A stretch of 57,813 nt of DNA from a virus (IMGVR_UViG_3300029787_000046:1-57813), one strand, 5' to 3'. Positions 1-57,813 are shown, counted from the first letter of the stretch. A program made the numbers and translations. Notes: a model not told the origin generated them from the sequence alone.

Positions 1-144
1 TCAAGCCTGTCCCACTTTCGGGCAAGCATCATGAACGCACCTACGCCACCTCTTTGTTTCCAACTGTTTCCGTAACTCTGCTCTGCCTTATGTAGTTTTG
101 TAACATCTACTTGTGCTACTTTTTCTACGATTGTAATCATTTCA
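1..144. repeat. Terminal overlap with 57670-57813 (circularisation overlap)
   Basis: 144 bp identical to 57670-57813 except A90 vs G57759; lies inside a coding sequence. Confidence 0.95.
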
Positions 145-182
145 CTGTAGTTATACTCAACTTTATCTAACTCAACACGCAT
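1..182 (-). CDS. 5' part of Nmad1/DUF1599-like protein that continues across the junction into 57471-57669
   Basis: ATG at 182 overlaps the TS stop (TAATG); reads MRVELDKVEYNYSEMITIVEK..., in frame with ORF 57471..57809. Confidence 0.8.
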   Translation of the reverse strand, partial: MRVELDKVEYNYSEMITIVEKVAQVDVTKLHKAEQSYGNSWKQRGGVGAFMMLARKWDRL

Positions 183-1228
183 TATGTTCTCCTCTCTAAC
201 CATTCAAGACACGCTTTACGCCATGCCCTATCGTTAATTGTTGTTGCCTCTATTATGGCTTCATCCATAAATAGTTTGTTTGTATCTTTACTTTTCCATG
301 CTTTCCAAGATTTAATCATAGGTGTTGCTGTTGTATTCAAGTAATCATTTATTGCACCTGTGTCTTCAACTCTTCGCCTATTATTGTGCTTTAATCTTGT
401 TTTACTGGCCTCGTTATCACCTCCCCATCTTTTAAACCACTGGCTAAGTTCTTGATCAAAAGTAGCAGGGTTATCTATTAATGGTGGAGAGGCATAGCTT
501 AACCCATCATCTGCTATAGTAAGATACGGTTCATAATCTAACGGTAAATTATCTAACTTTTGTAATGTGTCTACATAAGCATGAAGATTATTACTAAACT
601 GATAGTAAATCCCCACCCGAAGTCCGCACATTGTTGCCATATACTCTAGTAAAAAAGACATATGCACAGCGTTAGCTCCGTAAGCTCCCCAGATCATATC
701 ATTACTACGATTAGCTACAGTCATATTTAGTTTGCCCTTACGAGACCAAAAATAAATCTGGGTATTACAGGGGTAGTCTTTGCCATCATTATCTTCCTGC
801 AAATCTTCCCATGGATCCCACATCCCAATAACTGTTCTTCTATCATTTGGATAATTCCTCAGCCTATGGATAGCAGTTAATAATTGATCTTTTGTAAACC
901 ATTCTCTCCATCTAAAACCATATGCCCCATGAAAATGCTCACCATCATCACTGTAAGTATTTATCCTGCCATTAAACTGGCTAATCCATTCTACATCATT
1001 ACGCCCTGCTAACATCCATAAAGATTCCATAAAGTGGAAGTATGGGTTGGCATCTCGTTGTGGATAAAACAGTACTCGTTCACGGCTATCTGTATAAGTT
1101 GTCATAACAGGGGTGGGGAACTCTAAAGCTGCCCCATTACGAGTTTGCACTTCTACTCCGTTAACTTCTAATGCTTGTTTAGCTAGGTATAACGCCTCGC
1201 TTACGTTTCTTGCGTGTATCGACTGCAT
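182..1228 (-). CDS. Thymidylate synthase-family protein, probable dUMP hydroxymethylase
   Basis: Catalytic PC (DYPCNTQ), RSNDMIWGAYGAN motif ending in Asn (uracil-type), NLHAY; N-terminal TRNG and ESLWMLAG motifs. Confidence 0.85.
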   Translation of the reverse strand: MQSIHARNVSEALYLAKQALEVNGVEVQTRNGAALEFPTPVMTTYTDSRERVLFYPQRDANPYFHFMESLWMLAGRNDVEWISQFNGRINTYSDDGEHFHGAYGFRWREWFTKDQLLTAIHRLRNYPNDRRTVIGMWDPWEDLQEDNDGKDYPCNTQIYFWSRKGKLNMTVANRSNDMIWGAYGANAVHMSFLLEYMATMCGLRVGIYYQFSNNLHAYVDTLQKLDNLPLDYEPYLTIADDGLSYASPPLIDNPATFDQELSQWFKRWGGDNEASKTRLKHNNRRRVEDTGAINDYLNTTATPMIKSWKAWKSKDTNKLFMDEAIIEATTINDRAWRKACLEWLERRT

Positions 1229-1251
1229 ATTAGCCTCCTCGATGGTTGTTA

Positions 1252-2571
1252 TTATAGTTGGGTATGGTAACCTTGTTGTGTATAGTCATAGCGTTCTTCG
1301 AGTAGCGTCGAAAGCCTCGGTAAACCAAAGAACTGTAGGTTTTTATTGCAATCGATAATTAGCTGAATATTCTGTTCTGGGTGACCTTTTTCAAGAAAAT
1401 GCGTTGGTTGAGTTACAATGTCTACATATTCTTGCGCTACGTTCCGCATATCAAACTTATTTAACAACCCTAGATTATTGTGTCGCATTGTTTCCCACTG
1501 TTCCTTATTAGTTAGCCCCTCATTTACTATATCCCCAAACTCTTCGGGTGTAGCTGTATGGGGTATCTCTATGTAGTTTTGCCCAGACTTAAATATCTGG
1601 CTGTTTTTCATACCCAAATCTGTAGCCATTGGTACAGCACCTTTGATCATAGCCTCTACCGTTGTACGATTAAAATGTGCGCCATAGTCAGAATACTTTT
1701 TAGAAAAGCTAGGGTCTATCTGTAGCTTAGTTTCACCAAGCAATCGCAATACTTCTTCATTAGGTACAACACCATGATAACTCATACCTGTATTGAGGGC
1801 GATTGCCCATATACGGTTACCCTGTGCATCAAAATACTTTGGTTTGCATTTATCTTTACTTGTCATATACCTGTATTCAATCCCTGCCCCACCGACTACA
1901 ACAGTCTCTTTTATAAACGGTACAGCACGAACCAAAGTATCCACTCGTTTCCACGCTTTAAATATTTGGATTGCCAATGCACCACTACGTTGATCAAAAT
2001 CATAACCAAAATCCCCATGTATTTTAAATGGGTTTAAGATTAACTTGCGTGGAATATCTAAATATTGTGCCGAGTTATAGGCACTTTCATGAACGCATAC
2101 AGCGGCATGAAAATATTCTGAAACAGAGATAAGGTGTGGATACAACTTAGGTAAATTGCCATCATGTATGATAGCAATGTTTTTGCTACCATGATCATAC
2201 AGATCTAGCCAAGCTTTGATTTCTGTGTTATCTTTATTAAGAGTAGGTACAGGTATATGCCAAAGAACGGCATCGTATTTACTACACTTTTCTTTAAATA
2301 GCTCTCGTGCCTGTTTGCTCACATAAGGTATCTTGGGTATACCCTTCCACCCTCGTGCTTGGTGAAACTTATACCCTGTCCCACCTTCTAAAGATTTATA
2401 ATCTCCATCCCTACCGCGGATTGGTGATCTATTAGAAACAGCACTTTTAGGAACGAGCATACAAAAGTCTACTTCATGCCCTAACTCTTTTAAGCCTTTA
2501 GCCAAATACTCAGCATGGTTAATTATGCCACCATAATCTTGTATTTGGAATAGTGTCATTAAGAACTTCAT
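1252..2571 (-). CDS. GT-B fold (GT4-like) glycosyltransferase
   Basis: N-terminal GGIINHAEYLAKGLKELGHEVD; WKRVD; C-terminal HFNRTTVEAMIKGAVPMATD equivalent to the GT4 nucleotide-sugar-binding signature. Confidence 0.8.
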   Translation of the reverse strand: MKFLMTLFQIQDYGGIINHAEYLAKGLKELGHEVDFCMLVPKSAVSNRSPIRGRDGDYKSLEGGTGYKFHQARGWKGIPKIPYVSKQARELFKEKCSKYDAVLWHIPVPTLNKDNTEIKAWLDLYDHGSKNIAIIHDGNLPKLYPHLISVSEYFHAAVCVHESAYNSAQYLDIPRKLILNPFKIHGDFGYDFDQRSGALAIQIFKAWKRVDTLVRAVPFIKETVVVGGAGIEYRYMTSKDKCKPKYFDAQGNRIWAIALNTGMSYHGVVPNEEVLRLLGETKLQIDPSFSKKYSDYGAHFNRTTVEAMIKGAVPMATDLGMKNSQIFKSGQNYIEIPHTATPEEFGDIVNEGLTNKEQWETMRHNNLGLLNKFDMRNVAQEYVDIVTQPTHFLEKGHPEQNIQLIIDCNKNLQFFGLPRLSTLLEERYDYTQQGYHTQL

Positions 2572-3479
2572 TCTACAGTCCCTTTCTTAAAGTTATCGTT
2601 TGATAATATATTGGCGTTATATCTACTCCTAGGCGTACCTTGTCCCAAACGCACACGTTCGTATTTATCCCACTCACATAAGCTATGCTCTATAGTACGC
2701 ATATCTACACGAGCTACAGGCACATGAGGTTTACAATGCTTAGGAGCTTCAGCTAATAACAGTTGCATTTCAGTATTTGCTACTTGTTGATTCATGCCTT
2801 TTTTAAGGTCACGCAAATGTATACGGTTTAATCCTCGCTTGGCTCCAGGACCTGCGTTAGCCCACGAGAATTGATCTTTCGCGGCTTCCAACACAGGTGT
2901 GTAGTTGAGATCCGTAACCACCTCGTACGACATAAAACCTCCCCCTCCCCACCCTTTATAGGAACCCATCGCTTGGTGGAGCTCTTGGAGGGATAAAGAT
3001 TCATTGGCAATCTTGGAAAGTGCCTCCTTTTTCTCCCAAATGGGCGCAAGAAAATAGTCAACTACGACCTCCGATTTTGGTGCTTTTAACCCTTGATTTG
3101 TGATTATATACGCACCAGTAAAAGTTCGTAAACCTTTTGACAACCGATCTTCAATCAATTGTTTAGTTTTAGTTTTATCCCACCCATCATCTTCGTACAC
3201 CCACTTGTGAGCATCGGCAAACTCACTTGTGCCGATCATACGAAATAAGCAACAGTTAAAAATAATTTCACCATGTGGACGGTTGTGGTTTGGTTTAGTC
3301 CAGTTCTCACGCATCCACACAGTTACTTTATCATTTTCACGAAAAGGGTTTGTAAACTTGTAGTCTTGAAGAATTCTATCTTCTGTCCACGGTGGTATTT
3401 CGTCGGCTACCCTACGTTGGTAAATAGAATGTCTTTCATTTATCCAACCAAAGTATCTTTCTACAGCTTCGGTGTCCAT
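2568..3479 (-). CDS. 5-hmdU DNA kinase helical-domain family protein (aGPT-Pplase1 / HMUDK_hel-like)
   Basis: ERHSIY...PPWTEDRILQDYKFTNPFREND, FTGAYII, GGFMSYEVVTDL, GPGAKRGL, IEHSLCEWDKY motifs typical of this family; adjacent to TS homologue. Confidence 0.8.
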   Translation of the reverse strand: MDTEAVERYFGWINERHSIYQRRVADEIPPWTEDRILQDYKFTNPFRENDKVTVWMRENWTKPNHNRPHGEIIFNCCLFRMIGTSEFADAHKWVYEDDGWDKTKTKQLIEDRLSKGLRTFTGAYIITNQGLKAPKSEVVVDYFLAPIWEKKEALSKIANESLSLQELHQAMGSYKGWGGGGFMSYEVVTDLNYTPVLEAAKDQFSWANAGPGAKRGLNRIHLRDLKKGMNQQVANTEMQLLLAEAPKHCKPHVPVARVDMRTIEHSLCEWDKYERVRLGQGTPRSRYNANILSNDNFKKGTVE

Positions 3480-3482
3480 AGC

Positions 3483-4124
3483 TTACTCCTCTAACTTTAT
3501 GGCTCCTGCCTTTACAGCAATTTTAATATCTACCCCACCTCCTGGAGAAGGATCTAAAGCACGAAGTTTTTCCATCGCTTCAGCTACAGTAGTGCATCCC
3601 ATAACAACCTGCATATTACGATGACGATTTGTACCTGAACGGATTGGGGGGTCTACCATAAGAGAAACTATTTTAGTAGTTTTTTCAAAACGAGGGCGCA
3701 CCTCTTTTTCTGCTTTTTGCGCTTTATTATTAAATTGATCTACATGAATTGTAGTAGCGTATGGAGCATCGGTATCATTCATTTGGTTTTCCTTTTTCCA
3801 TGGTTTAACACAAAACAGCACGAGTTCATGGAGCTTCTGTGCCGCTATCTCTTTATTCTGAAACTTATTCTTCATATTTCGGTATGTAGTAAGGTCAGTA
3901 AAAAACCTTTGGTGAGCTTTTTTACTGTTGAGTAAAATGCTGAGCCATGTGCCTTCAAGCTCATCTTGTTGCCAATTATCTATTAATTGTCTGGGTTCTT
4001 TGTCGCTGTAAACCATGCTGTACTGGTCTATAAACTTGCAATCTTTCATAGAGGCTAACGAAGTAAAAGACAGCACTTGGTAAGGGCTGTTCTCATTGTT
4101 ACTTTCACATATCGCATAGTGCAT
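3483..4124 (-). CDS. Hypothetical protein, first gene of the modification operon
   Basis: 213 aa ORF, TAGAAAGGG RBS, 3 bp from next gene. Confidence 0.7.
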   Translation of the reverse strand: MHYAICESNNENSPYQVLSFTSLASMKDCKFIDQYSMVYSDKEPRQLIDNWQQDELEGTWLSILLNSKKAHQRFFTDLTTYRNMKNKFQNKEIAAQKLHELVLFCVKPWKKENQMNDTDAPYATTIHVDQFNNKAQKAEKEVRPRFEKTTKIVSLMVDPPIRSGTNRHRNMQVVMGCTTVAEAMEKLRALDPSPGGGVDIKIAVKAGAIKLEE

Positions 4125-4148
4125 TTAATTCCCTTTCTATGGAAAACA

Positions 4149-4182
4149 GGTAGTGTTCATATTCTAGTATACGAACACTACC
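4149..4182 (-). terminator. Hairpin (probable terminator of the DUF932 gene) overlapping a promoter
   Basis: GGTAGTGTTC...GAACACTACC inverted repeat, followed on the minus strand by TGTTTT. Confidence 0.55.
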
Positions 4183-4202
4183 AAGACAACATTTACTTTA
4201 TC
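4161..4202 (-). promoter_or_regulatory. Promoter with GATAA-N8-TTGTC dyad
   Basis: GATAA-AGTAAATG-TTGTCT-N17-TAGAAT. Confidence 0.65.
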
Positions 4203-4205
4203 AAG

Positions 4206-5234
4206 TTAAGCTACGTTAGCATACTCAATAGCTTTTGTCAATGCTTTACGTTTAGTGTTTGCACCAGACCCAAACCATGCAGAGTGCAACGCATTACCTT
4301 CAGCTAAAGATTTTTTCTGGTGATCAACTACATAGGTCACAGCATTTACTGCTCCCCACCAAGTGCCACGAGCGGAAGATAGGTTTGCTCCTGGACTTGT
4401 TTCTACTGCCTCATGTACAAGTTCTGCTGTACGAGCAAACTCTTGGTGTAACGGAGGTAACGCATTTTGATTAGGTGCTTTAGCTCGTTCAATCAATAAA
4501 TTTGGTTGTAACAGCTCAGCAATAAAGTTGCTCACATCGAAGTCTTTAGCAGTTTTGCTTGCCAAGAACTCAGACTGTTCTTTGAAGTTTTGCATTTGGT
4601 GTCCACTAATGCCCAGAGCTTCTTCTGCTGCTTTGTGGATTTCTTCATCGAACATTTGTAAGTGTAGCACACGGAAACGCGAACCTTCTGCGTTCAATGC
4701 CATAGTGAGTGTATTATTGCAGACAACACGTATCGGTGTAAACATAACCGTCATCGCTTTGCCTACTTGATGGCTGTTGTTTAATAACAGATAACCACCT
4801 ACTTCATCGCCACCTGCGAGAGCAAACTCATCTTTAAGTTTTGCTAACCCCCAAATGTCTTTGCCATCTTTTAAACTACCTGCCGTTTCCATAGTCATGG
4901 AACCTGCTTCGGTAAACTTTTTGAAAAAGTCCATAACTTCTGAGTTTTGGAAAGGAACATAGCCTTCACCACATGGAGATAATATTTTGTTGTCGCTATC
5001 ACGAACAAGAAAATAATTGTCGGGACAACGCAAAAACCCTGCCTCGCCTGTTGGGTCTACAATATTCCAACAGTTTGGTTTGTCAACTGTGTAAGCAGGT
5101 CGCTTACTAACTGTCCAATCAATCTGGGCAGCTTTTAACATTTGGTCGGGCGACATATTGTCGTCAACCTTTTTGCCTAGACCATGCCAAGGAACTTGTC
5201 CTGCATAAGCCATCGTTTCTACTTCATGTGCCAT
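4206..5234 (-). CDS. DUF932/DUF945 phage-plasmid family protein (TIGR03299-like)
   Basis: MAHEVETMAYAGQVPWHGLG start, METAGSLKDG, TPIRVVCNNTL, GTWWGAVNAVT. Confidence 0.9.
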   Translation of the reverse strand: MAHEVETMAYAGQVPWHGLGKKVDDNMSPDQMLKAAQIDWTVSKRPAYTVDKPNCWNIVDPTGEAGFLRCPDNYFLVRDSDNKILSPCGEGYVPFQNSEVMDFFKKFTEAGSMTMETAGSLKDGKDIWGLAKLKDEFALAGGDEVGGYLLLNNSHQVGKAMTVMFTPIRVVCNNTLTMALNAEGSRFRVLHLQMFDEEIHKAAEEALGISGHQMQNFKEQSEFLASKTAKDFDVSNFIAELLQPNLLIERAKAPNQNALPPLHQEFARTAELVHEAVETSPGANLSSARGTWWGAVNAVTYVVDHQKKSLAEGNALHSAWFGSGANTKRKALTKAIEYANVA

Positions 5235-5254
5235 TTAAATACTCCTTTCTCGAG

Positions 5255-5515
5255 TTAATGTGTTGGCATTGTTACGACAGGTAAGCTGTCGTATGTTTTA
5301 AACGGTATGTCGATCCACGCATCAGAGTCTGCTGTTAATAATAAACGAACACGCATCTCCACATCGTTGTGTGGCATTGTCCATACAATCGGGTACTTAT
5401 TGTCTTCATCAAGCTCTGATAAATACTTTGGTTCAAGCGTACGATTACGATTAGTGCGAATCGCAGTTTTATTAGCCTTTACCAAAAGGTCTTTGGTGAA
5501 ATATTTTACCTGCAT
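5255..5515 (-). CDS. Hypothetical protein
   Basis: 86 aa ORF with TAGAAAGGG RBS and upstream promoter. Confidence 0.75.
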   Translation of the reverse strand: MQVKYFTKDLLVKANKTAIRTNRNRTLEPKYLSELDEDNKYPIVWTMPHNDVEMRVRLLLTADSDAWIDIPFKTYDSLPVVTMPTH

Positions 5516-5547
5516 TTTATCCCTTTCTATGTTTTTAATGCTACACC

Positions 5548-5588
5548 ATAATACACGCAGTGTTAGTCTTGATAAGCGTTTATTTATC
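5548..5588 (-). promoter_or_regulatory. Promoter with GATAA-N8-TTATC dyad
   Basis: GATAA-ATAAACGC-TTATCA-N16-TATTAT. Confidence 0.65.
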
Positions 5589-5596
5589 TTGTTTGT

Positions 5597-7114
5597 TCAG
5601 TAGGGCAACGCATATCCTTGACTATACATAGGATGTATCAAATGTATATTATTTATGGCTCTGGTAAGTCCAACATAAAATACTCTTGTTTCATCTTCTT
5701 CATAGGTATGTATTTTACGCCACATTGAGTATGGTCGTTTCATTGTATCAGTTAATAGCATTACGTTAGTTGCTTGAGCACCTTTAGCTGAATGAATAGT
5801 AGAGATTCGTAGTCGAGGTGTTTCGGTCAAACTTTCACCTTTTCGTAAACAAGCTTTTATATACGTCTTATCTCTTTGATTTATTTTGCCTAGCCCGATA
5901 TCCCATGGATGGTTGTGCAACAAACCGTGATTGTTTTGTAACTCTTGCAAACTGTAGAAAGAACCTTCCTCACCATCGGGCATAGTTTTGCAGCCATACT
6001 TTACTTGACTGTTTAGCATCATGTGTTTGTACACGAGCAAGACTTGTTCTTTACTGAGCTTGTTGCCTTCTCGTAAATATTCCCATAATCTGACTGCTTC
6101 TAAAACCTTACTGTCAATACTTTTAGATCCATTGTAGATATATAAATGTCCTCGCCTTCTTACTTCTTCCTCTATTTGTTGAGCTCCTCGGGTAGTTCTA
6201 CTTAGTAGTAACCAGTCACCTTCTGATAAACTCACCTCTTCAGAATGGCGATGCCAAGTTATATTACCTTCTTCTTGTCTTGGTTCAAACTCTTTTTCCC
6301 TGCGTCCCACTATTGTTTTGATTACATTGTGGCTGAGTGTATGGTGCGAAGAAGGAATACGATAACTTTTATTTAGTAATGTCACATCACCTTCAAGACC
6401 TACAAAGTAATTTACATCTGCTCCTGCCCAACGGTAAATAGCTTGGTCATCATCCCCTGCTACATAACATATCTTGCTTTTTTGTTCTAACTGTCTTACC
6501 ATTTCCCACTGCAAAGGTGACAGGTCTTGGGCTTCATCTATAAATACTACTTCTAATTTAGGGCAAAGGTCACGCTCTACAAAAGCCTCTAACATTCCGG
6601 TATAATCATATAGCCCATAAGAGTTTTTCCAATGCTCTATACCTCTGTTTACATAATCAACCCTAGCCCAATCTGTTTTCAATGGTACGATACTGTCATT
6701 GTAAATCTTGCGTAACGGTTGGCGTAGTATACGAGCAATATTAATAATTTCAAGGAATTTGTCACCATAGCCAAAGTCTTTGTATGGTCCTTGTTCTACA
6801 TTACCTCCTCCATAAAACTTTCCTATCTTTAACCAATCAGCTATTTCTTGGTACTTATCTGGTGTAATCACTTGTGAATGGGTCAAACCTGCTTGCAAAA
6901 AAGCTAGACTATGTAGAGTTCTAAAGTAAGGTAACTCTTTTTTAGATATATTAAACTTGGTACAAGCTCTTTCTATAGCTTCCTGTGCTGCTCTTCTTGT
7001 AAAAGCAAAGTACCCTATACGGTCTGGCGGTACACCAGAGGCAAGGTATTGTTCAACTAAGTTAAGAAGTTTAGTTGTCTTGCCTGTTCCTGGAGGTCCG
7101 AGCACGATGTGCAT
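5597..7114 (-). CDS. UvrD/Rep-like superfamily 1 helicase
   Basis: GPPGTGKT, FTRRAA, TLHS, IDEAQD, GDDDQAIY, STIHSAKG, YVGLTRA. Confidence 0.92.
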   Translation of the reverse strand: MHIVLGPPGTGKTTKLLNLVEQYLASGVPPDRIGYFAFTRRAAQEAIERACTKFNISKKELPYFRTLHSLAFLQAGLTHSQVITPDKYQEIADWLKIGKFYGGGNVEQGPYKDFGYGDKFLEIINIARILRQPLRKIYNDSIVPLKTDWARVDYVNRGIEHWKNSYGLYDYTGMLEAFVERDLCPKLEVVFIDEAQDLSPLQWEMVRQLEQKSKICYVAGDDDQAIYRWAGADVNYFVGLEGDVTLLNKSYRIPSSHHTLSHNVIKTIVGRREKEFEPRQEEGNITWHRHSEEVSLSEGDWLLLSRTTRGAQQIEEEVRRRGHLYIYNGSKSIDSKVLEAVRLWEYLREGNKLSKEQVLLVYKHMMLNSQVKYGCKTMPDGEEGSFYSLQELQNNHGLLHNHPWDIGLGKINQRDKTYIKACLRKGESLTETPRLRISTIHSAKGAQATNVMLLTDTMKRPYSMWRKIHTYEEDETRVFYVGLTRAINNIHLIHPMYSQGYALPY

Positions 7115-53323: not shown

Positions 53324-53584
53324 TTAGCTAGAGAAATCATTATCTTTCTTCTCTGTCCAGTAAGTTCCTGTCAAATATCCACACGATGAGCAACCAATCT
53401 GTCTTGTTTTTTCATTGAGTAAGAAAAAGGAATTATCTCCACATAAAGAACAGACAAGAACATCAACCTCGTAACATTCTACGGTGACGTTTTTCTCTTC
53501 AGAATGGGATCTTTTTTCTCTTGTGAATGGGATAACATTACTTTCTCCATGAATGGGGGAACTTTTCTTTTCTTCCATGTACAT
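53324..53584 (-). CDS. Zn-ribbon protein
   Basis: CSLCG...CSSCG; start uncertain. Confidence 0.55.
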   Translation of the reverse strand: MYMEEKKSSPIHGESNVIPFTREKRSHSEEKNVTVECYEVDVLVCSLCGDNSFFLLNEKTRQIGCSSCGYLTGTYWTEKKDNDFSS

Positions 53585-54003
53585 AACCTCGCTTTCTCAC
53601 CGATGTAATAGTTATGATAAGCAAGTAACGGTGTCGGTGATTTGTACTCATCAGGCATAGCCTGAGGGTGTTTCGTTACTCCTCTTGCGGTTAATTCTAC
53701 AGGGGGGCATCGTAGTATGGCAAGAATTCTTTCACAAGCATGGATCTTTTCATACCTGAAAGTATACTCTTTACATAATGCAATACCTAGACGCCAGAGC
53801 CATTTGTAGTTTTCTACAGTTTGTCCTGCCCATAATGTGCAAGGATGTTTTTGATGAACAGGTAAATATGGTCCTTCGGCATTATGTCGCCAATGAACAG
53901 TGCTGAGCATTTGGGTAGATTCTAATGGCATTTTAACGACGTGTTTATCGCAATGATATTGAGCACAAGTTTCGTGGTTATAATCTAGTAAGAATATATT
54001 CAC
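53479..54003 (-). CDS. Pyrimidine dimer DNA glycosylase (DenV-related) family protein
   Basis: MNIFLLD..HCDKHVVKMPLESTQML..HPCTLW..PQAMPDEYK..AYHNYY. Confidence 0.75.
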   Translation of the reverse strand: MNIFLLDYNHETCAQYHCDKHVVKMPLESTQMLSTVHWRHNAEGPYLPVHQKHPCTLWAGQTVENYKWLWRLGIALCKEYTFRYEKIHACERILAILRCPPVELTARGVTKHPQAMPDEYKSPTPLLAYHNYYIGEKARLCTWKKRKVPPFMEKVMLSHSQEKKDPILKRKTSP

Positions 54004-54735: not shown

Positions 54736-54938
54736 TACTTGCCTCCCTCTTTTGGCATTTTATAATCCAGTTCATACTTTTCATCTGTTGTATCAACAAT
54801 TAGTTTAACTTTTTTTACTTTTTTACTTTCTAATAATTCAGTGAATTTTTCAGATATAAATTTAAAATAGCCATCTTTTCGATTATACCCTGTAGTTGGG
54901 GAATACATAATCACATATTTAGGATCTTTTTTAGCCAT
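54735..54938 (-). CDS. Hypothetical protein
   Basis: 67 aa, TAATG-coupled on both sides. Confidence 0.65.
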   Translation of the reverse strand: MAKKDPKYVIMYSPTTGYNRKDGYFKFISEKFTELLESKKVKKVKLIVDTTDEKYELDYKMPKEGGK

Positions 54939-55486
54939 TAAACATCATCACATAATATTTTGATTATTTCAGAAACAGGTTCAAAAATCAATTCGTTTCT
55001 GTACGTTTTATTTAAATAATCTACTCCTCGTAAAAAAACATCTTCTGCCATACCATTGCCTTGTTGCATTAAACGATAACAATGCAATACAAGCTCTAAT
55101 TTGTCGGCAATATCGCACATTTTTTTATCTTCTTTAGTAATTTTGTGTACAGTATCACCCACCCTAATAGATTGTTCATAAGCTCTTTCAGCTTTTACCA
55201 TTAAATCATTAATCTTAGGGTAATTCCATTTAGTCGTAGCAGGTACATCACCTACCTCGGCTTCTGCCACATCGTGATATAATAAATGCAAGATGCAGTT
55301 TTTACTTGCGTCAGGGTAAAGGGTTTGCAGTATAACTATCGCCCTCCAAGTATGAGCAGCTACATTTTGCCCATCCCCTAACTCTGGTCGTGTATGATAC
55401 CGAACAACGTGTCCACCTTTTAACCGAGCGTGTAGCTTGGCTAAGTTTTCATTTCGCTGTGGTTGTCTTTTAATCCTCTTGTCCAT
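54938..55486 (-). CDS. HD-domain 5'-deoxynucleotidase / dNTP hydrolase (YfbR-like)
   Basis: RYH..QNVAAHTW..LYHDVAE..GDVP..ADKLE; start reassigned to MDKRIK after GGAG RBS. Confidence 0.8.
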   Translation of the reverse strand: MDKRIKRQPQRNENLAKLHARLKGGHVVRYHTRPELGDGQNVAAHTWRAIVILQTLYPDASKNCILHLLYHDVAEAEVGDVPATTKWNYPKINDLMVKAERAYEQSIRVGDTVHKITKEDKKMCDIADKLELVLHCYRLMQQGNGMAEDVFLRGVDYLNKTYRNELIFEPVSEIIKILCDDV

Positions 55487-57357
55487 GGTTTCTCCGTGAA
55501 TGTTTGTTTTGCTTCCCCCCAATTTGGTCCAAACTCTGCGTCGACTACGGAGGGTACTTCTAGTTTGACGCAATCCTGCATTATCTCCGTAATCTTTTTA
55601 GCTTGGTCTTCACTTTCTACGGAGACATCTAGTTCATCGTGTACTTGAATCATGGGAAGTATACCTTCATCAGCTAAAGCAACCATCGCAGCTTTAGTTT
55701 GATCGGCAGCACTTCCTTGGATAAGTTTATTAAGAGCCTTATAAGTAAACGCTCGTTTGATTGCAGGACCATGTTCGGCATAAGCTTCTTGGTAAGTCAT
55801 TGGCTTCCAACTCCCATACTTGTTTGGTTCCCATTTATCAAACCTACAACGTCTGCCTAGAACGGTACGGATTACACCTTTTTGACTTGCTCTGTTTATA
55901 GCGTAATCACTTAACTCTCGTACGAAGGGTACTTTTTCATGATATTGAGCAAACAACTCTTTTGCATCTTCAAACTCTAAACCTAAACTTGCTGCCAACT
56001 TTTTAGACCCCATACCGTAGAACAACCCGAGGTTGATATCTTTAGCCTGTTTACGAGGGACGCCCACAATATCTGCTGCCATTTGGTGGAAGTCTGTTCG
56101 TGCATCTGCATTGTATTGTTCTGCAAAGTCAGAAGCCCCTCTGAAGCCCATGAGCTTGCTGTAATGCACAACTATGCGCGGTTCTTGGCTAGAGTAATCG
56201 AACGCACCCCATAATGTGTCTTGTTCAGGTATAAATAGGCTACGTATCATTGGACCAATTTCGCCATGCCTAGCAGGGATTTGTTGAAGATTAGGGTTAC
56301 TGTAACTAAATCTACCTGTGACAGTACCGCCATCGTCAGAACGCAGAGGGTGTAGCTCAGCATGGATACGCCCATTTATCTGGTGCTTTAATATTGTATC
56401 TACAAAAGTAGTTCTTGCTTTATTAAACTCTCTAGCTTGTACAATCATTTGTGGTATTTTGTGGGGATGGTTGGCTAAGAATCCTTTAGTAAAGCTTGGT
56501 GCTCCTGTTTTTTCTGTTTTACTATACTCTAAACCTAAAGCATCAAATGCTTTTGATACACTCTCAGCAGCCCACAACTCTACAGCAATACCTGATTGTT
56601 TTTTAATTTCGTCAAGTAATTTCTTTTCACGTTGCTCTAAATCAACTTTAATACGTTCGGCTTTTTCTAAATCTACACAGACGCCACGTTGTCGCATAGG
56701 TATTATCGTTTTCAATACTTTTAATTCTAGGTCAAAAATATCGCCAATATCTTCTTTTATGATTAGCCCTTTAAAATGTGTCCACAAACGTAAAGTCAAC
56801 GCTGCATCTTGTTCTGCATAAGCTCCTACATAAGCAGCAGGGAGTTTAAACATCTCACTTTTAGCATTGATACCAAAAGCCTCTGCTGCTTCTCGTAGTT
56901 CTTTTTCTGATTTACGCTCTTGCAAATAATCTCTGCCAATAGCGTTTAAGGCATAGCTAAAACGATTTTCATCTAACAAAGGGGCAACAACCATTGTGTC
57001 TACTATTCTTCCTTGGATAGTTACACCTTCAGCAAGCAACCACCCAACATCATAAGGAGCGTTATGGAAAATATAATCACGATCTTTTGAACATACCTCT
57101 TGTAACCACCTGATTGTTGTTTTGGGGTCAAGATTAGAACCTAACTCGTGTCGTATAGGAAAGTACCATTGGTCGCCATCTACTGCTACAGCGATACCTA
57201 TAATATATCCATCTTTCCTAGCCCACCCTGAACCCATTGTTGTAAGGTTAGGATCTCTAGTTTCTAAATCTATAGCTACTTCTCTAGCATGGCTAAGATC
57301 TGGATAACCATCGGGCATAACCCACTCAGTCGGGGGTTGAAATAAAGGAAACTGCAT
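55441..57357 (-). CDS. polA: Family A DNA polymerase with 3'-5' exonuclease
   Basis: IDLET, HNAPYD, YAEQD exonuclease motifs; TGRFS.SNPNLQQIP, DYSSQEPR, KDINLGLFYGMG, IQGSAAD, VHDE. Confidence 0.95.
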   Translation of the reverse strand: MQFPLFQPPTEWVMPDGYPDLSHAREVAIDLETRDPNLTTMGSGWARKDGYIIGIAVAVDGDQWYFPIRHELGSNLDPKTTIRWLQEVCSKDRDYIFHNAPYDVGWLLAEGVTIQGRIVDTMVVAPLLDENRFSYALNAIGRDYLQERKSEKELREAAEAFGINAKSEMFKLPAAYVGAYAEQDAALTLRLWTHFKGLIIKEDIGDIFDLELKVLKTIIPMRQRGVCVDLEKAERIKVDLEQREKKLLDEIKKQSGIAVELWAAESVSKAFDALGLEYSKTEKTGAPSFTKGFLANHPHKIPQMIVQAREFNKARTTFVDTILKHQINGRIHAELHPLRSDDGGTVTGRFSYSNPNLQQIPARHGEIGPMIRSLFIPEQDTLWGAFDYSSQEPRIVVHYSKLMGFRGASDFAEQYNADARTDFHQMAADIVGVPRKQAKDINLGLFYGMGSKKLAASLGLEFEDAKELFAQYHEKVPFVRELSDYAINRASQKGVIRTVLGRRCRFDKWEPNKYGSWKPMTYQEAYAEHGPAIKRAFTYKALNKLIQGSAADQTKAAMVALADEGILPMIQVHDELDVSVESEDQAKKITEIMQDCVKLEVPSVVDAEFGPNWGEAKQTFTEKPWTRGLKDNHSEMKT

Positions 57358-57526
57358 TACTCTTCACTTTCATCGGTTGGTTGCATTTATGACATTTAGC
57401 CCACTTATTTTTCAAATTGCGAAAAGTAACCTCCTTTGTAGCCCCACACTCACAAACGGCGATTAGCACTTCATCTAGTTTTCCATTCGCATCTGTCTTC
57501 GAGGAAGAGGTCTGGCTCTTGGTCAT
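57326..57526 (-). CDS. Small Zn-finger protein
   Basis: CECG...CHKC; start uncertain. Confidence 0.55.
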   Translation of the reverse strand: MTKSQTSSSKTDANGKLDEVLIAVCECGATKEVTFRNLKNKWAKCHKCNQPMKVKSNAVSFISTPD

Positions 57527-57813
57527 TCGTTGTTTCCTTCCGAATAATTTCTGCTTCAACTAACATAAGATACCTGCGTAAATCTTGTATATCATCCAAG
57601 ATACCTTCAGCTCTAGTGTCTTTTTCAGCAGCAAGAAAGATGTCATAGTTGCTTTCATTCACTTGCTTTTCAAGCCTGTCCCACTTTCGGGCAAGCATCA
57701 TGAACGCACCTACGCCACCTCTTTGTTTCCAACTGTTTCCGTAACTCTGCTCTGCCTTGTGTAGTTTTGTAACATCTACTTGTGCTACTTTTTCTACGAT
57801 TGTAATCATTTCA
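57471..57813 (-). CDS. Nucleotide-modification-associated (Nmad1/DUF1599-like) all-alpha protein, 3' part
   Basis: K...YGNSW..RG..G....LARKWDRL...DDIQDLRRY. Confidence 0.65.
   Translation of the reverse strand, partial: EMITIVEKVAQVDVTKLHKAEQSYGNSWKQRGGVGAFMMLARKWDRLEKQVNESNYDIFLAAEKDTRAEGILDDIQDLRRYLMLVEAEIIRKETTNDQEPDLFLEDRCEWKTR
57670..57813. repeat. Terminal overlap with 1-144
   Basis: 143/144 identical. Confidence 0.95.

Follow-up and report, generated by a model that had tools for sequence, protein, structure and literature searches.

The viral genome IMGVR_UViG_3300029787_000046 (57,813 bases, analysed over its whole length and called the window below) carries a cassette of three co-directional minus-strand genes encoding a thymidylate synthase (TS) homologue of 348 amino acids (aa), a glycosyltransferase (GT) of 439 aa and a 303-aa protein of aGPT-Pplase clade 1 (HMUDK_hel in Pfam, here Pplase1). 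Judging from the gene identities and the gene context across relatives, it is reasonably likely that the DNA of this phage contains glycosylated 5-hydroxymethyldeoxyuridine (5-hmdU), and there is a fair likelihood that the region forms the core of a thymidine-modification module that works without a kinase. In the proposed pathway, the TS homologue would make 5-hmdUMP and, with an HD-domain nucleotidase and the phage family A DNA polymerase (PolA), 5-hmdU would enter the DNA in place of T. The GT would then add a sugar to hmdU, as its gene context suggests, giving a base-J-like O-glycoside. Pplase1 would perform a step common to every phage that makes hmdU ahead of replication, the best guess being the conversion of unglycosylated hmdU to thymine or another C5-substituted base, and the sugar-bearing end product would protect the DNA against nucleases of the host.

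The same three adjacent genes had been named in an earlier interpretation of the window (the sequence-only reading), which placed the GT between the other two and overlapping the stop of the Pplase1 gene. Coordinates, Pfam matches and the GT model agree with this arrangement: the Pplase1 stop and the GT start share a 4-nt ATGA overlap, and the GT is translationally coupled to Pplase1.

A GT4-like glycosyltransferase in a shared gene slot

The window GT scored 22.2 bits against PF13439 (Glyco_transf_4), under the 28.5 cut-off, and homologues at 40–65% identity have PF00534/PF13692. Its structural model, built with an alignment of 38 homologues (pLDDT 92.9, pTM 0.90), gave 384 Foldseek matches in the PDB at E ≤ 0.001, of which the best were GT4-type GT-B enzymes: HepE, BshA, MshA, TarM and PimA, with E about 1e-14 and TM-scores up to 0.71, and glycogen synthase. 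By this model the protein is GT4-like and has a GT-B fold, the latter in line with the assignment in the sequence-only reading. A sequence search of the PDB with the GT returned no usable match, and fold matches in BFVD, which included SP-15 and "DNA alpha-glucosyltransferase" entries, were given no weight because their scores were level with those of any GT-B protein. Among metagenomic proteins 171 relatives were found at E ≤ 0.001, several of them from Tara, and a tblastn search of 50,697 GenBank phage records found no relative. In one locus (L137:6382-12741) the gene for a homologue of the window GT is flanked by that of a B12-binding radical-SAM enzyme and, on the other side, by that of a DNA polymerase III alpha subunit with a fused uracil-DNA glycosylase domain.

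The association of the three genes suspected from the window alone recurs in its relatives. Among 20 GT loci in IMG/VR (53–97% identity), Pplase1 was found upstream in 19 and TS downstream in 19, and the two missing flanks belong to loci cut at the contig end. A survey was also made from the side of Pplase1, using the best 80 IMG/VR loci of 564 confirmed Pplase1 relatives, 75 of which have both flanks. All but a few of the 80 follow the order UvrD-(DUF932)-Pplase1-[slot]-TS-PolA. The proteins of the slot fell into clusters, the largest of which (c0, 34 loci) matches PF20691, the TET-associated glycosyltransferase (TAGT) family, with 81.6 bits, and phrog_842, "beta-glucosyl-HMC-alpha-glucosyltransferase", with 171 bits; a single further locus (c13) also has a TAGT (40.8 bits). 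The window-type GT-B occupies 14 loci (c2), and 12 loci hold a protein homologous to the window GT (c3; hhalign probability 92.9%, E 3.8e-7, 307 columns), for which language-model features also say glycosyltransferase. Cluster c6 (8 loci) is called GT-like (T4 BGT / group 1) on the sole basis of language-model features and is treated as a lead. A GT was thereby firmly assigned in 61 of the 75 slots (TAGT 35, GT-B 14, c3 12), or 69 with c6, counts that are not independent as many of the loci are near-identical, and no locus has two kinds. Grouped at 90% identity of Pplase1, the sample comprises 54 clusters (24 with c0, 13 with c2, 6 with c3, 4 with c6, 1 with c13 and 6 without a GT). The GT families in the slot are mutually exclusive, and TAGT, one of them, is a DNA-base GT family.

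Other genes accompany the GT in the slot, namely radical-SAM/SPASM proteins (21 loci), FkbM-type methyltransferases, an NrdR-like zinc ribbon, dUTPase and HD proteins. A trio of NrdR-like zinc ribbon (PF22811), TAGT and radical-SAM/SPASM recurs in L027, L029, L031, L033-L035, L038, L047 and L048, which suggests further tailoring of the sugar or the base. The GT is not always in the slot: in L054, L118 and L119 the GT-B gene is found some 7 kb upstream of Pplase1, with TS directly after Pplase1.

Relatives of the glycosyltransferase beside Tet_JBP dioxygenases

A wider search for the GT family yielded 60 further loci, with Pplase1 in the flanks of 38 and TS in those of 41. Neither was present in 19 loci, and 18 of these have an upstream Tet_JBP homologue (PF12851, 88 bits), which abuts the GT gene in 15 (gap of −3 to +4 nt) and lies 408–1057 nt away in 3. 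These TET-linked GTs come from phages encoding a clamp and clamp loader and are 36–42% identical to the window GT; Pplase1 is absent from their loci. The GT family is thus found almost only beside an enzyme that creates a 5-hydroxymethylpyrimidine, either a nucleotide-level hydroxymethylase or a DNA-level dioxygenase, and since both contexts supply such a base, a 5-hydroxymethylpyrimidine in DNA is the proposed acceptor of the GT. The window itself lacks a TET/JBP gene; the two 2OG-FeII_Oxy_5 genes that it has belong to another family.

Several points weigh against glycosylated 5-hmdU as the product. The GT had no Pfam match at E ≤ 0.01 to T4 AGT (PF11440), T4 BGT (PF09198) or TAGT (PF20691) and no match in PHROG, its profile aligned with that of TAGT cluster c0 at a probability of 0.3% (hhalign), and the nearest solved folds are of enzymes that act on small molecules, lipids or polysaccharides. 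Six of the 75 slots have no GT-like gene, and the slot counts include the many near-identical loci noted above. A search for C5-methyltransferases in five TET-linked records (8–33% complete) found none, and as these records are fragments, the choice between hmC and hmU as the base of the TET-linked GT is not settled. Literature searches on glycosylated 5-hmU returned kinetoplastid base J and chemistry papers only, and no report of phage DNA containing glycosylated 5-hmdU was found in them. As for Pplase1, the chemistry known for the wider aGPT-Pplase family requires a phosphate leaving group, while the window has no kinase. The Pplase1 model gave no Foldseek match in the PDB at E ≤ 0.001 (best 0.98), and no solved Pplase2 structure was found; its Cys motif aligns with the VETVLC motif of the SN1 amino-acid:DNA transferase (ADDT), but weakly (hhalign, 18 columns, probability 0.9%). 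Finally, N-alpha-glycinylthymidine still formed when gp55 was left out of a reaction with M6 lysates (PMC8989533; this paper, PMC9599517, PMC13229309 and bioRxiv 10.1101/2023.12.21.572611 are cited for excerpts).

The fold and profile results bear on a different explanation, in which the GT targets the host envelope, a virion protein or a small molecule, and the TS homologue and Pplase1 give a non-sugar modification or plain hmdU/T DNA. It would agree with the nearest solved folds being GT4 enzymes for small molecules, teichoic acid, lipopolysaccharide and lipids, with the lack of a sequence match to known DNA GT families and with the three loci in which the GT lies some 7 kb from Pplase1-TS. 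However, the GT alternates one-for-one with TAGT in the modification slot across the 75 loci, the same family abuts Tet_JBP genes in 15 loci, and the GT gene of the window is translationally coupled to Pplase1; a GT acting on something other than DNA is therefore regarded as unlikely.

The thymidylate synthase homologue

The TS homologue has full-length similarity to the homologue of phage M6 (42.5% identity) and is 45.7% identical to SN1_017 and 30.7% identical to SP10 gp188, with motifs and a similar C-terminal extension in common. In HMMER alignments to solved structures, the Cys of its PCN motif (residue 153) aligns with the catalytic PCH Cys of TS, and an Asn aligns with the TS Asn, which we take to be the base-contacting residue and which is replaced by Asp in the CMP hydroxymethylase MilA. 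Both Trp residues of E. coli TS that presumably form the folate wall are replaced by non-Trp residues. All NCBIfam TS equivalogs scored far below their cut-offs (best 79 vs 174). Phages M6, SN1 and SP10 are described as first making DNA with 5-hmdU replacing T (PMC8989533). On account of its likeness to the M6, SN1 and SP10 enzymes, the Asn position and the low equivalog scores, the TS homologue is probably a dUMP hydroxymethylase of the M6/SP10 type that makes 5-hmdUMP.

The labels from Pfam and NCBIfam read only thymidylate synthase, as would be expected if the protein were an ordinary TS, or a dCMP hydroxymethylase, and the DNA contained either unmodified T or, like that of T-even phages, glycosylated hmC. 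This is very unlikely given how far the scores fall short of the equivalog cut-offs, the Asn in place of Asp at the position that specifies the base, the full-length resemblance, C-terminal extension included, to enzymes of hmdU-making phages, and the constant linkage with Pplase1, a gene confined to hypermodifying phages among seven genomes (PMC5889632).

Absence of a 5-hmdU DNA kinase and of amino-acid:DNA transferase

The proteins with a demonstrated 5-hmdU DNA kinase function, namely M6 gp54, ViI gp67 and gp243, PhiW-14 gp37 and SP10 gp186, are of the P-loop type (PMC8989533). Pfam names were taken from a scan of the cluster annotated in the M6-like phage SN1, where PF18748 corresponds to the P-loop kinase, PF18724 to the clade-2 transferase and PF18723 to the "clade 1" gene. 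A six-frame search of the window gave no match at E ≤ 10 to PF18748 (HMUDK_HMUD1), PF18724 (ADDT) or PF18757 (Nmad5); the same searches in SN1, used as a positive control, gave 65 bits for PF18748 and 160 bits for PF18724. Among the relatives, PF18748 was found in none of 12 in one set and was absent from 17 of 18 in the other; the two sets include 3 and 14 records at least 90% complete, all 17 of which lack it. The ADDT family was never above cut-off in the relatives. A Pfam scan of 68 open reading frames (ORFs) of the window revealed no kinase, pyridoxal phosphate (PLP) or radical-SAM family. Of the M6/ViI-type set, the window thus has the putative hydroxymethylase and the clade-1 Pplase only.

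These results alter the sequence-only reading in part. It had assigned the third gene to a kinase family, which does not hold, as the gene matches PF18723 only. Its statement that an amino acid:DNA transferase is lacking is right as far as PF18724 is concerned, while the wider family is nevertheless represented by the clade-1 paralogue with its Cys motif, and the lack of PLP/radical-SAM tailoring genes was confirmed. The prediction of a sugar-bearing thymidine is retained on the strength of the hydroxymethylase-type TS, the GT and the comparative context, but the scheme of a kinase followed by sugar addition is not.

A P-loop kinase occupies the slot in a single relative, which has no GT (L077:8843-10222; PF18748 24.5 bits, just under the 27-bit cut-off), and the kinase gene adjoins that of a 182-aa protein matching phrog_3816, "DNA methyltransferase". 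Two candidates for a hidden kinase were dropped. The 213-aa protein encoded next to Pplase1 has no Pfam or PHROG match above cut-off, and Pam3_gp34 corresponds, when the gene orders are aligned, to a gene that precedes primase also in relatives without the module and whose label in DSL-LC04 is "ATP-binding protein".

A possible source of the sugar donor is a 142-aa nucleotidyltransferase in the same operon, which scored 76 bits against rfaE_dom_II and 65 bits against TagD, both under cut-off, and 117 bits against phrog_7878. From these matches it may make the donor as an enzyme of the heptose-1-P adenylyltransferase or glycerol-3-P cytidylyltransferase type, and in a published phage cluster a nucleotidyltransferase of such a type and a GT-B are needed for heptose on 5hmC (bioRxiv 10.1101/2023.12.21.572611). 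The gene is absent from all five near-complete GT-B-type relatives and is therefore considered an optional extra.

This TagD/RfaE-type protein is also what could speak for a phosphorylated hmdU to which a sugar or polyol is joined via the phosphate, one of the two products envisaged in the sequence-only reading. As the window has no kinase, such a link is left without an enzyme behind it. The P-loop 5-hmdU DNA kinase is likewise missing from the 17 near-complete relatives, the nucleotidyltransferase from the five of GT-B type, and the best folds of the GT are sugar transferases, with no TagF-type polyol-phosphate transferase among the matches listed. A phosphate-linked sugar is accordingly extremely improbable.

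The clade-1 Pplase

The 303-aa protein matches PF18723 (HMUDK_hel) with 170.7 bits against a cut-off of 25, over profile positions 1–276 of 281, and phrog_2396 with 183 bits. It is 33–37% identical to proteins of SN1, YuA and Sonora, two of which are annotated as clade 1. It is not a kinase but an aGPT-Pplase of clade 1, helical, paralogous to the amino-acid:DNA transferases and with their Cys motif retained. The clades of the Pplases were reportedly introduced by Iyer et al. in 2013. Its model is all-alpha (pLDDT 94.1), and sequence and profile searches of the PDB found no usable relative. The family is large (3,664 clusters at 50% identity). Across 60 sequences, R16, N44, R47, D50, A123, F182, D202, G210, G212, C268, E269 and K272 are invariant; C268-E269 lie within HSLCEWDKY, and G210 and G212 belong to a GPG loop resembling a helix-hairpin-helix (HhH), in which P211 is nearly invariant.

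The same residues were compared between Pplase1 proteins from different contexts, comprising SN1 (kinase in the cluster), SP10 (fused to a kinase), L077 (kinase in the slot) and TAGT-, GT-B-, c3- and c6-linked members. C268, E269, G210, P211 and G212 are kept in eight of eight proteins, and of 28 positions checked, all 12 invariant ones and 13 of the 16 others are identical, the three remaining ones differing in a kinase-linked member. Because the invariant residues are the same in all contexts, the chemistry of Pplase1 seems to be independent of the tailoring enzyme present. In relatives the ADDT profile PF18724 matches the C-terminus of Pplase1 below threshold (12.9–17.9 bits); these weak matches fall on ORFs of Pplase1 size, and for the two that were mapped (G007 and G021) the coordinates lie inside the Pplase1 gene. 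SP10 gp186 is a fusion of PF18748 (residues 35–193, 82.9 bits) and PF18723 (residues 313–598), which fits the Pfam name "kinase, helical domain", and PF18724 is absent altogether from SP10. Ten longer Pplase1 relatives were scanned for fused domains, and one had a second Pfam domain and none a kinase. The former (P0124, 420 aa, metagenomic) has an N-terminal HhH-GPD base-excision domain (31.7 bits) ahead of HMUDK_hel.

Clade-2 aGPT-Pplases are amino-acid:DNA transferases that require a Cys and a nearby Glu, and borohydride converts the intermediate of the clade-2 enzyme to thymidine (PMC8989533). For clade 1, the passages of the literature that cover it assign no function. A plain copy of the PhiW-14/SP10 route is argued against by the lack of a kinase. 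From the TET-linked GT loci without Pplase1 we infer that it is dispensable for the GT and that the Pplase1 step is tied to full pre-replicative hmdU substitution.

A tentative and rather doubtful proposal is that Pplase1 turns 5-hmdU left over within polymeric DNA to thymine, or resolves hmdU skipped by the tailoring enzyme, by a kinase-free, Cys-driven chemistry at the exocyclic methylene like that of the paralogous transferases. This would fit the observation that Pplase1 always travels with a hydroxymethylase, and its absence from TET-linked GT loci, where only chosen T is oxidised. It would also fit the restriction of Pplase1 to hypermodifying phages among seven genomes compared, a set that includes the hmdU phage SPO1 (PMC5889632), as well as the M6 hypermodification obtained without gp55 and the composition of the virion DNA of SP10, PhiW-14, M6 and ViI, which contains the hypermodified base and T but no hmdU (PMC8989533). 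If Pplase1 resolves leftover hmdU, the packaged DNA would be a sequence-patterned mosaic of glycosyl-hmdU and T.

The interchange of kinase and GT in one slot in different relatives (the L077 kinase having a score of 24.5 bits at a cut-off of 27), the 12 invariant residues alike in kinase and GT settings and the kinase fused to the Pplase1 domain in SP10 could also mean that the glycoside serves as a transient activating group. In that case the GT would replace the kinase, the Cys of Pplase1 would expel the sugar and add a nucleophile or hydride, and the final base would be sugar-free. Chemical reasoning makes this distinctly unlikely, since a sugar alkoxide is a far worse leaving group than phosphate; moreover, the FkbM methyltransferases or radical-SAM/SPASM proteins of the slots look like tailoring enzymes for a retained glycan, and the TET-linked GT homologues lack Pplase1. 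A sugar retained on 5-hmdU stays the favored outcome.

Genomic surroundings of the cassette

The features of the operon are collected in Table 1. The first 60 bases of the window are found again 144 bases before its end, indicating that one gene, of about 132 aa, is divided over both window ends. The IMG/VR record is rated 99% complete and listed as linear without end repeats; with a terminal overlap of about 144 nt (window 1–144 and 57670–57813), it is probably circularly permuted. An exact copy of this entire overlap was looked for and not found. The operon carries on across the window ends with the ~132-aa gene, PolA, the HD 5'-deoxynucleotidase-like gene and the small nucleotidyltransferase.

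Table 1 Features of the modification-polymerase operon and its flanks, with positions in the window.
Feature	Position	Strand	Evidence or remark
Start of ~132-aa gene, overlaps TS stop	1..203	-	Remainder at 57471..57813 (-)
TS homologue, putative dUMP hydroxymethylase	182..1228	-	PF00303 Thymidylat_synt 83 bits; phrog_5131 362 bits
GT4-like GT-B glycosyltransferase, proposed 5-hmdU-DNA GT	1252..2571	-	Model pLDDT 92.9; GT4 PDB folds
aGPT-Pplase clade 1 (HMUDK_hel)	2568..3479	-	PF18723 170.7 bits
213-aa protein, no known family	3483..4124	-	First gene after promoter-/terminator-like site; conserved, fast-evolving
Hairpin with T-tail overlapping promoter-like site	4149..4189	-	Between DUF932 and 213-aa genes
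DUF932 / TIGR03299 protein, travels with module	4206..5234	-	Pfam, NCBIfam
Small nucleotidyltransferase, 142 aa	54307..54735	-	PF01467 61.7 bits
HD-domain 5'-deoxynucleotidase-like protein	54938..55573	-	PF12917 YfbR-like 34.8 bits; PF13023
Family A DNA polymerase with 3'-5' exonuclease domain	55441..57357	-	PF00476 214 bits

The ~132-aa gene always lies between TS and PolA. Its intact ortholog (L003:10363-10761) matched nothing in Pfam or NCBIfam and gave a weak match to phrog_22490 (22 bits). SP10 gp189 (L105:15989-16438) and the ~132-aa protein are both small proteins without a Pfam match encoded directly after the TS homologue; gp189 is annotated "replication protein", as is phrog_22490. 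The HD gene is found beside the TS homologue in phage SN1 as well, and its product probably trims the competing dTMP/dTTP pool. On the other side of the cassette, the 213-aa protein is encoded upstream of Pplase1 in relatives (31–94% identity), and the DUF932 gene sits between UvrD and Pplase1 in most of them. The hairpin and promoter-like site between these two genes may mark the operon boundary; this is weak evidence, as a scan of positions 1–5700 for promoters and terminators gave 14 sites against 15.7 in shuffles and thus no excess.

Just downstream of the operon, at 53479–54003, a pyrimidine-dimer DNA glycosylase of the T4 endonuclease V type (PF03013) is encoded and conserved in relatives. 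The structural region (13281–46412) encodes a Cpn10 co-chaperonin, SU10-type portal and adaptor proteins and a GH108 lysin, and contains the two ORFs matching PF13759 (2OG-FeII_Oxy_5; best E 1.1e-17).

The window PolA is 51–55% identical to the PolA of DSL-LC04, 023Pt_psg01, HTVC023P and HTVC027P, and the window phage is an HTVC023P-like marine phage. In 023Pt_psg01 and DSL-LC04, PolA comes straight after the helicase or after two small ORFs, and the annotation of the stretches shown lists no DUF932, Pplase1, GT or TS, so that the module seems to have been inserted between the helicase and polymerase genes. A nucleotide search with the first 8 kb of the window against the 50,697 GenBank phage records found no match.

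Relation to known modification systems

The sequence-only reading presented the pathway as new, which was overstated: TS, aG/PT-PPlase1, 5'-deoxynucleotidase and glucosyltransferase genes adjoining PolA have been reported for HTVC023P-type pelagiphages (PMC9599517), so the cassette itself is already noted in print. Phage backbone (PolA 51–55%), the place beside PolA and the TS, Pplase1 and HD genes are the same as in the window. However, the glucosyltransferase described there fits the TAGT/phrog_842 type (35 of 75 slots), whereas the window has an unrelated GT-B, and the excerpted report gives annotation only, without pointing out the lack of a kinase. As far as our searches of the literature show, three points are unpublished: the variant with a GT-B, the slot with its mutually exclusive GTs, and the lack of a kinase throughout the clade.

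With the hypermodification systems of M6, ViI, PaMx11, PhiW-14 and SH-Ab 15599, which use 5-HMUDK and AADT (PMC8989533, PMC13458397), the proposed pathway shares pre-replicative hmdU made by a TS-like hydroxymethylase, a clade-1 Pplase gene beside that of the hydroxymethylase, and an HD phosphohydrolase and PolA nearby. It differs in that the window has a GT instead of P-loop kinase, ADDT and PLP, radical-SAM, FAD and acetyltransferase tailoring genes.

The predicted product is of the same class as base J of kinetoplastids (JBP1/2 and JGT), an O-glycoside of 5-hydroxymethyluracil in DNA. The hmU would here come from a nucleotide-level hydroxymethylase, in contrast to the DNA dioxygenase of kinetoplastids, and the window GT has a GT-B fold by its model, whereas JGT is GT-A-like (bioRxiv 10.1101/2023.12.21.572611). 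The logic also resembles that of hmC glucosylation in T-even phages, where dCMP hydroxymethylase provides a pre-replicative hydroxymethylpyrimidine and a GT-B (AGT/BGT) acts on the DNA polymer; unlike that system, the window has an Asn (not Asp) pointing to uracil, no Pfam AGT/BGT match and an extra Pplase1 gene. Finally, there is a connection to the phage 5mYOX (TET/JBP) and GT pathways, which are post-replicative (PMC8256090; bioRxiv 10.1101/2023.12.21.572611; PMC13229309). Relatives of the window GT (36–42% identity) directly follow Tet_JBP genes, and one published cluster makes heptosyl-5hmC with a cytidylyltransferase and a GT-B, but no TET/JBP gene is present in the window. In the excerpts of these reports, GT-B contigs are often associated with ThyS (Pyle et al., bioRxiv 10.1101/2023.12.21.572611) and phage T-dioxygenases are linked with GTs (PMC13229309).

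Implications

If the proposed pathway is correct, a large group of marine phages (54 clusters of Pplase1 at 90% identity among the loci sampled; relatives also occur in Tara and further ocean data sets) would have a sugar on thymidine, attached by a route free of both 5-hmdU DNA kinase and amino-acid:DNA transferase. Base-J-like DNA would then exist in viruses of bacteria, built from a nucleotide-level hydroxymethylase. Such a modification would bear on the escape of phages from restriction and CRISPR nucleases, on the recovery and reading of phage DNA in viromes, and on the enzyme toolbox for 5-hmU labelling. The way in which three or more unrelated GT families replace one another one-for-one in one slot would be a natural experiment for finding DNA glycosyltransferases, and the kinase-less setting would provide the simplest system for learning the role of the clade-1 Pplase.

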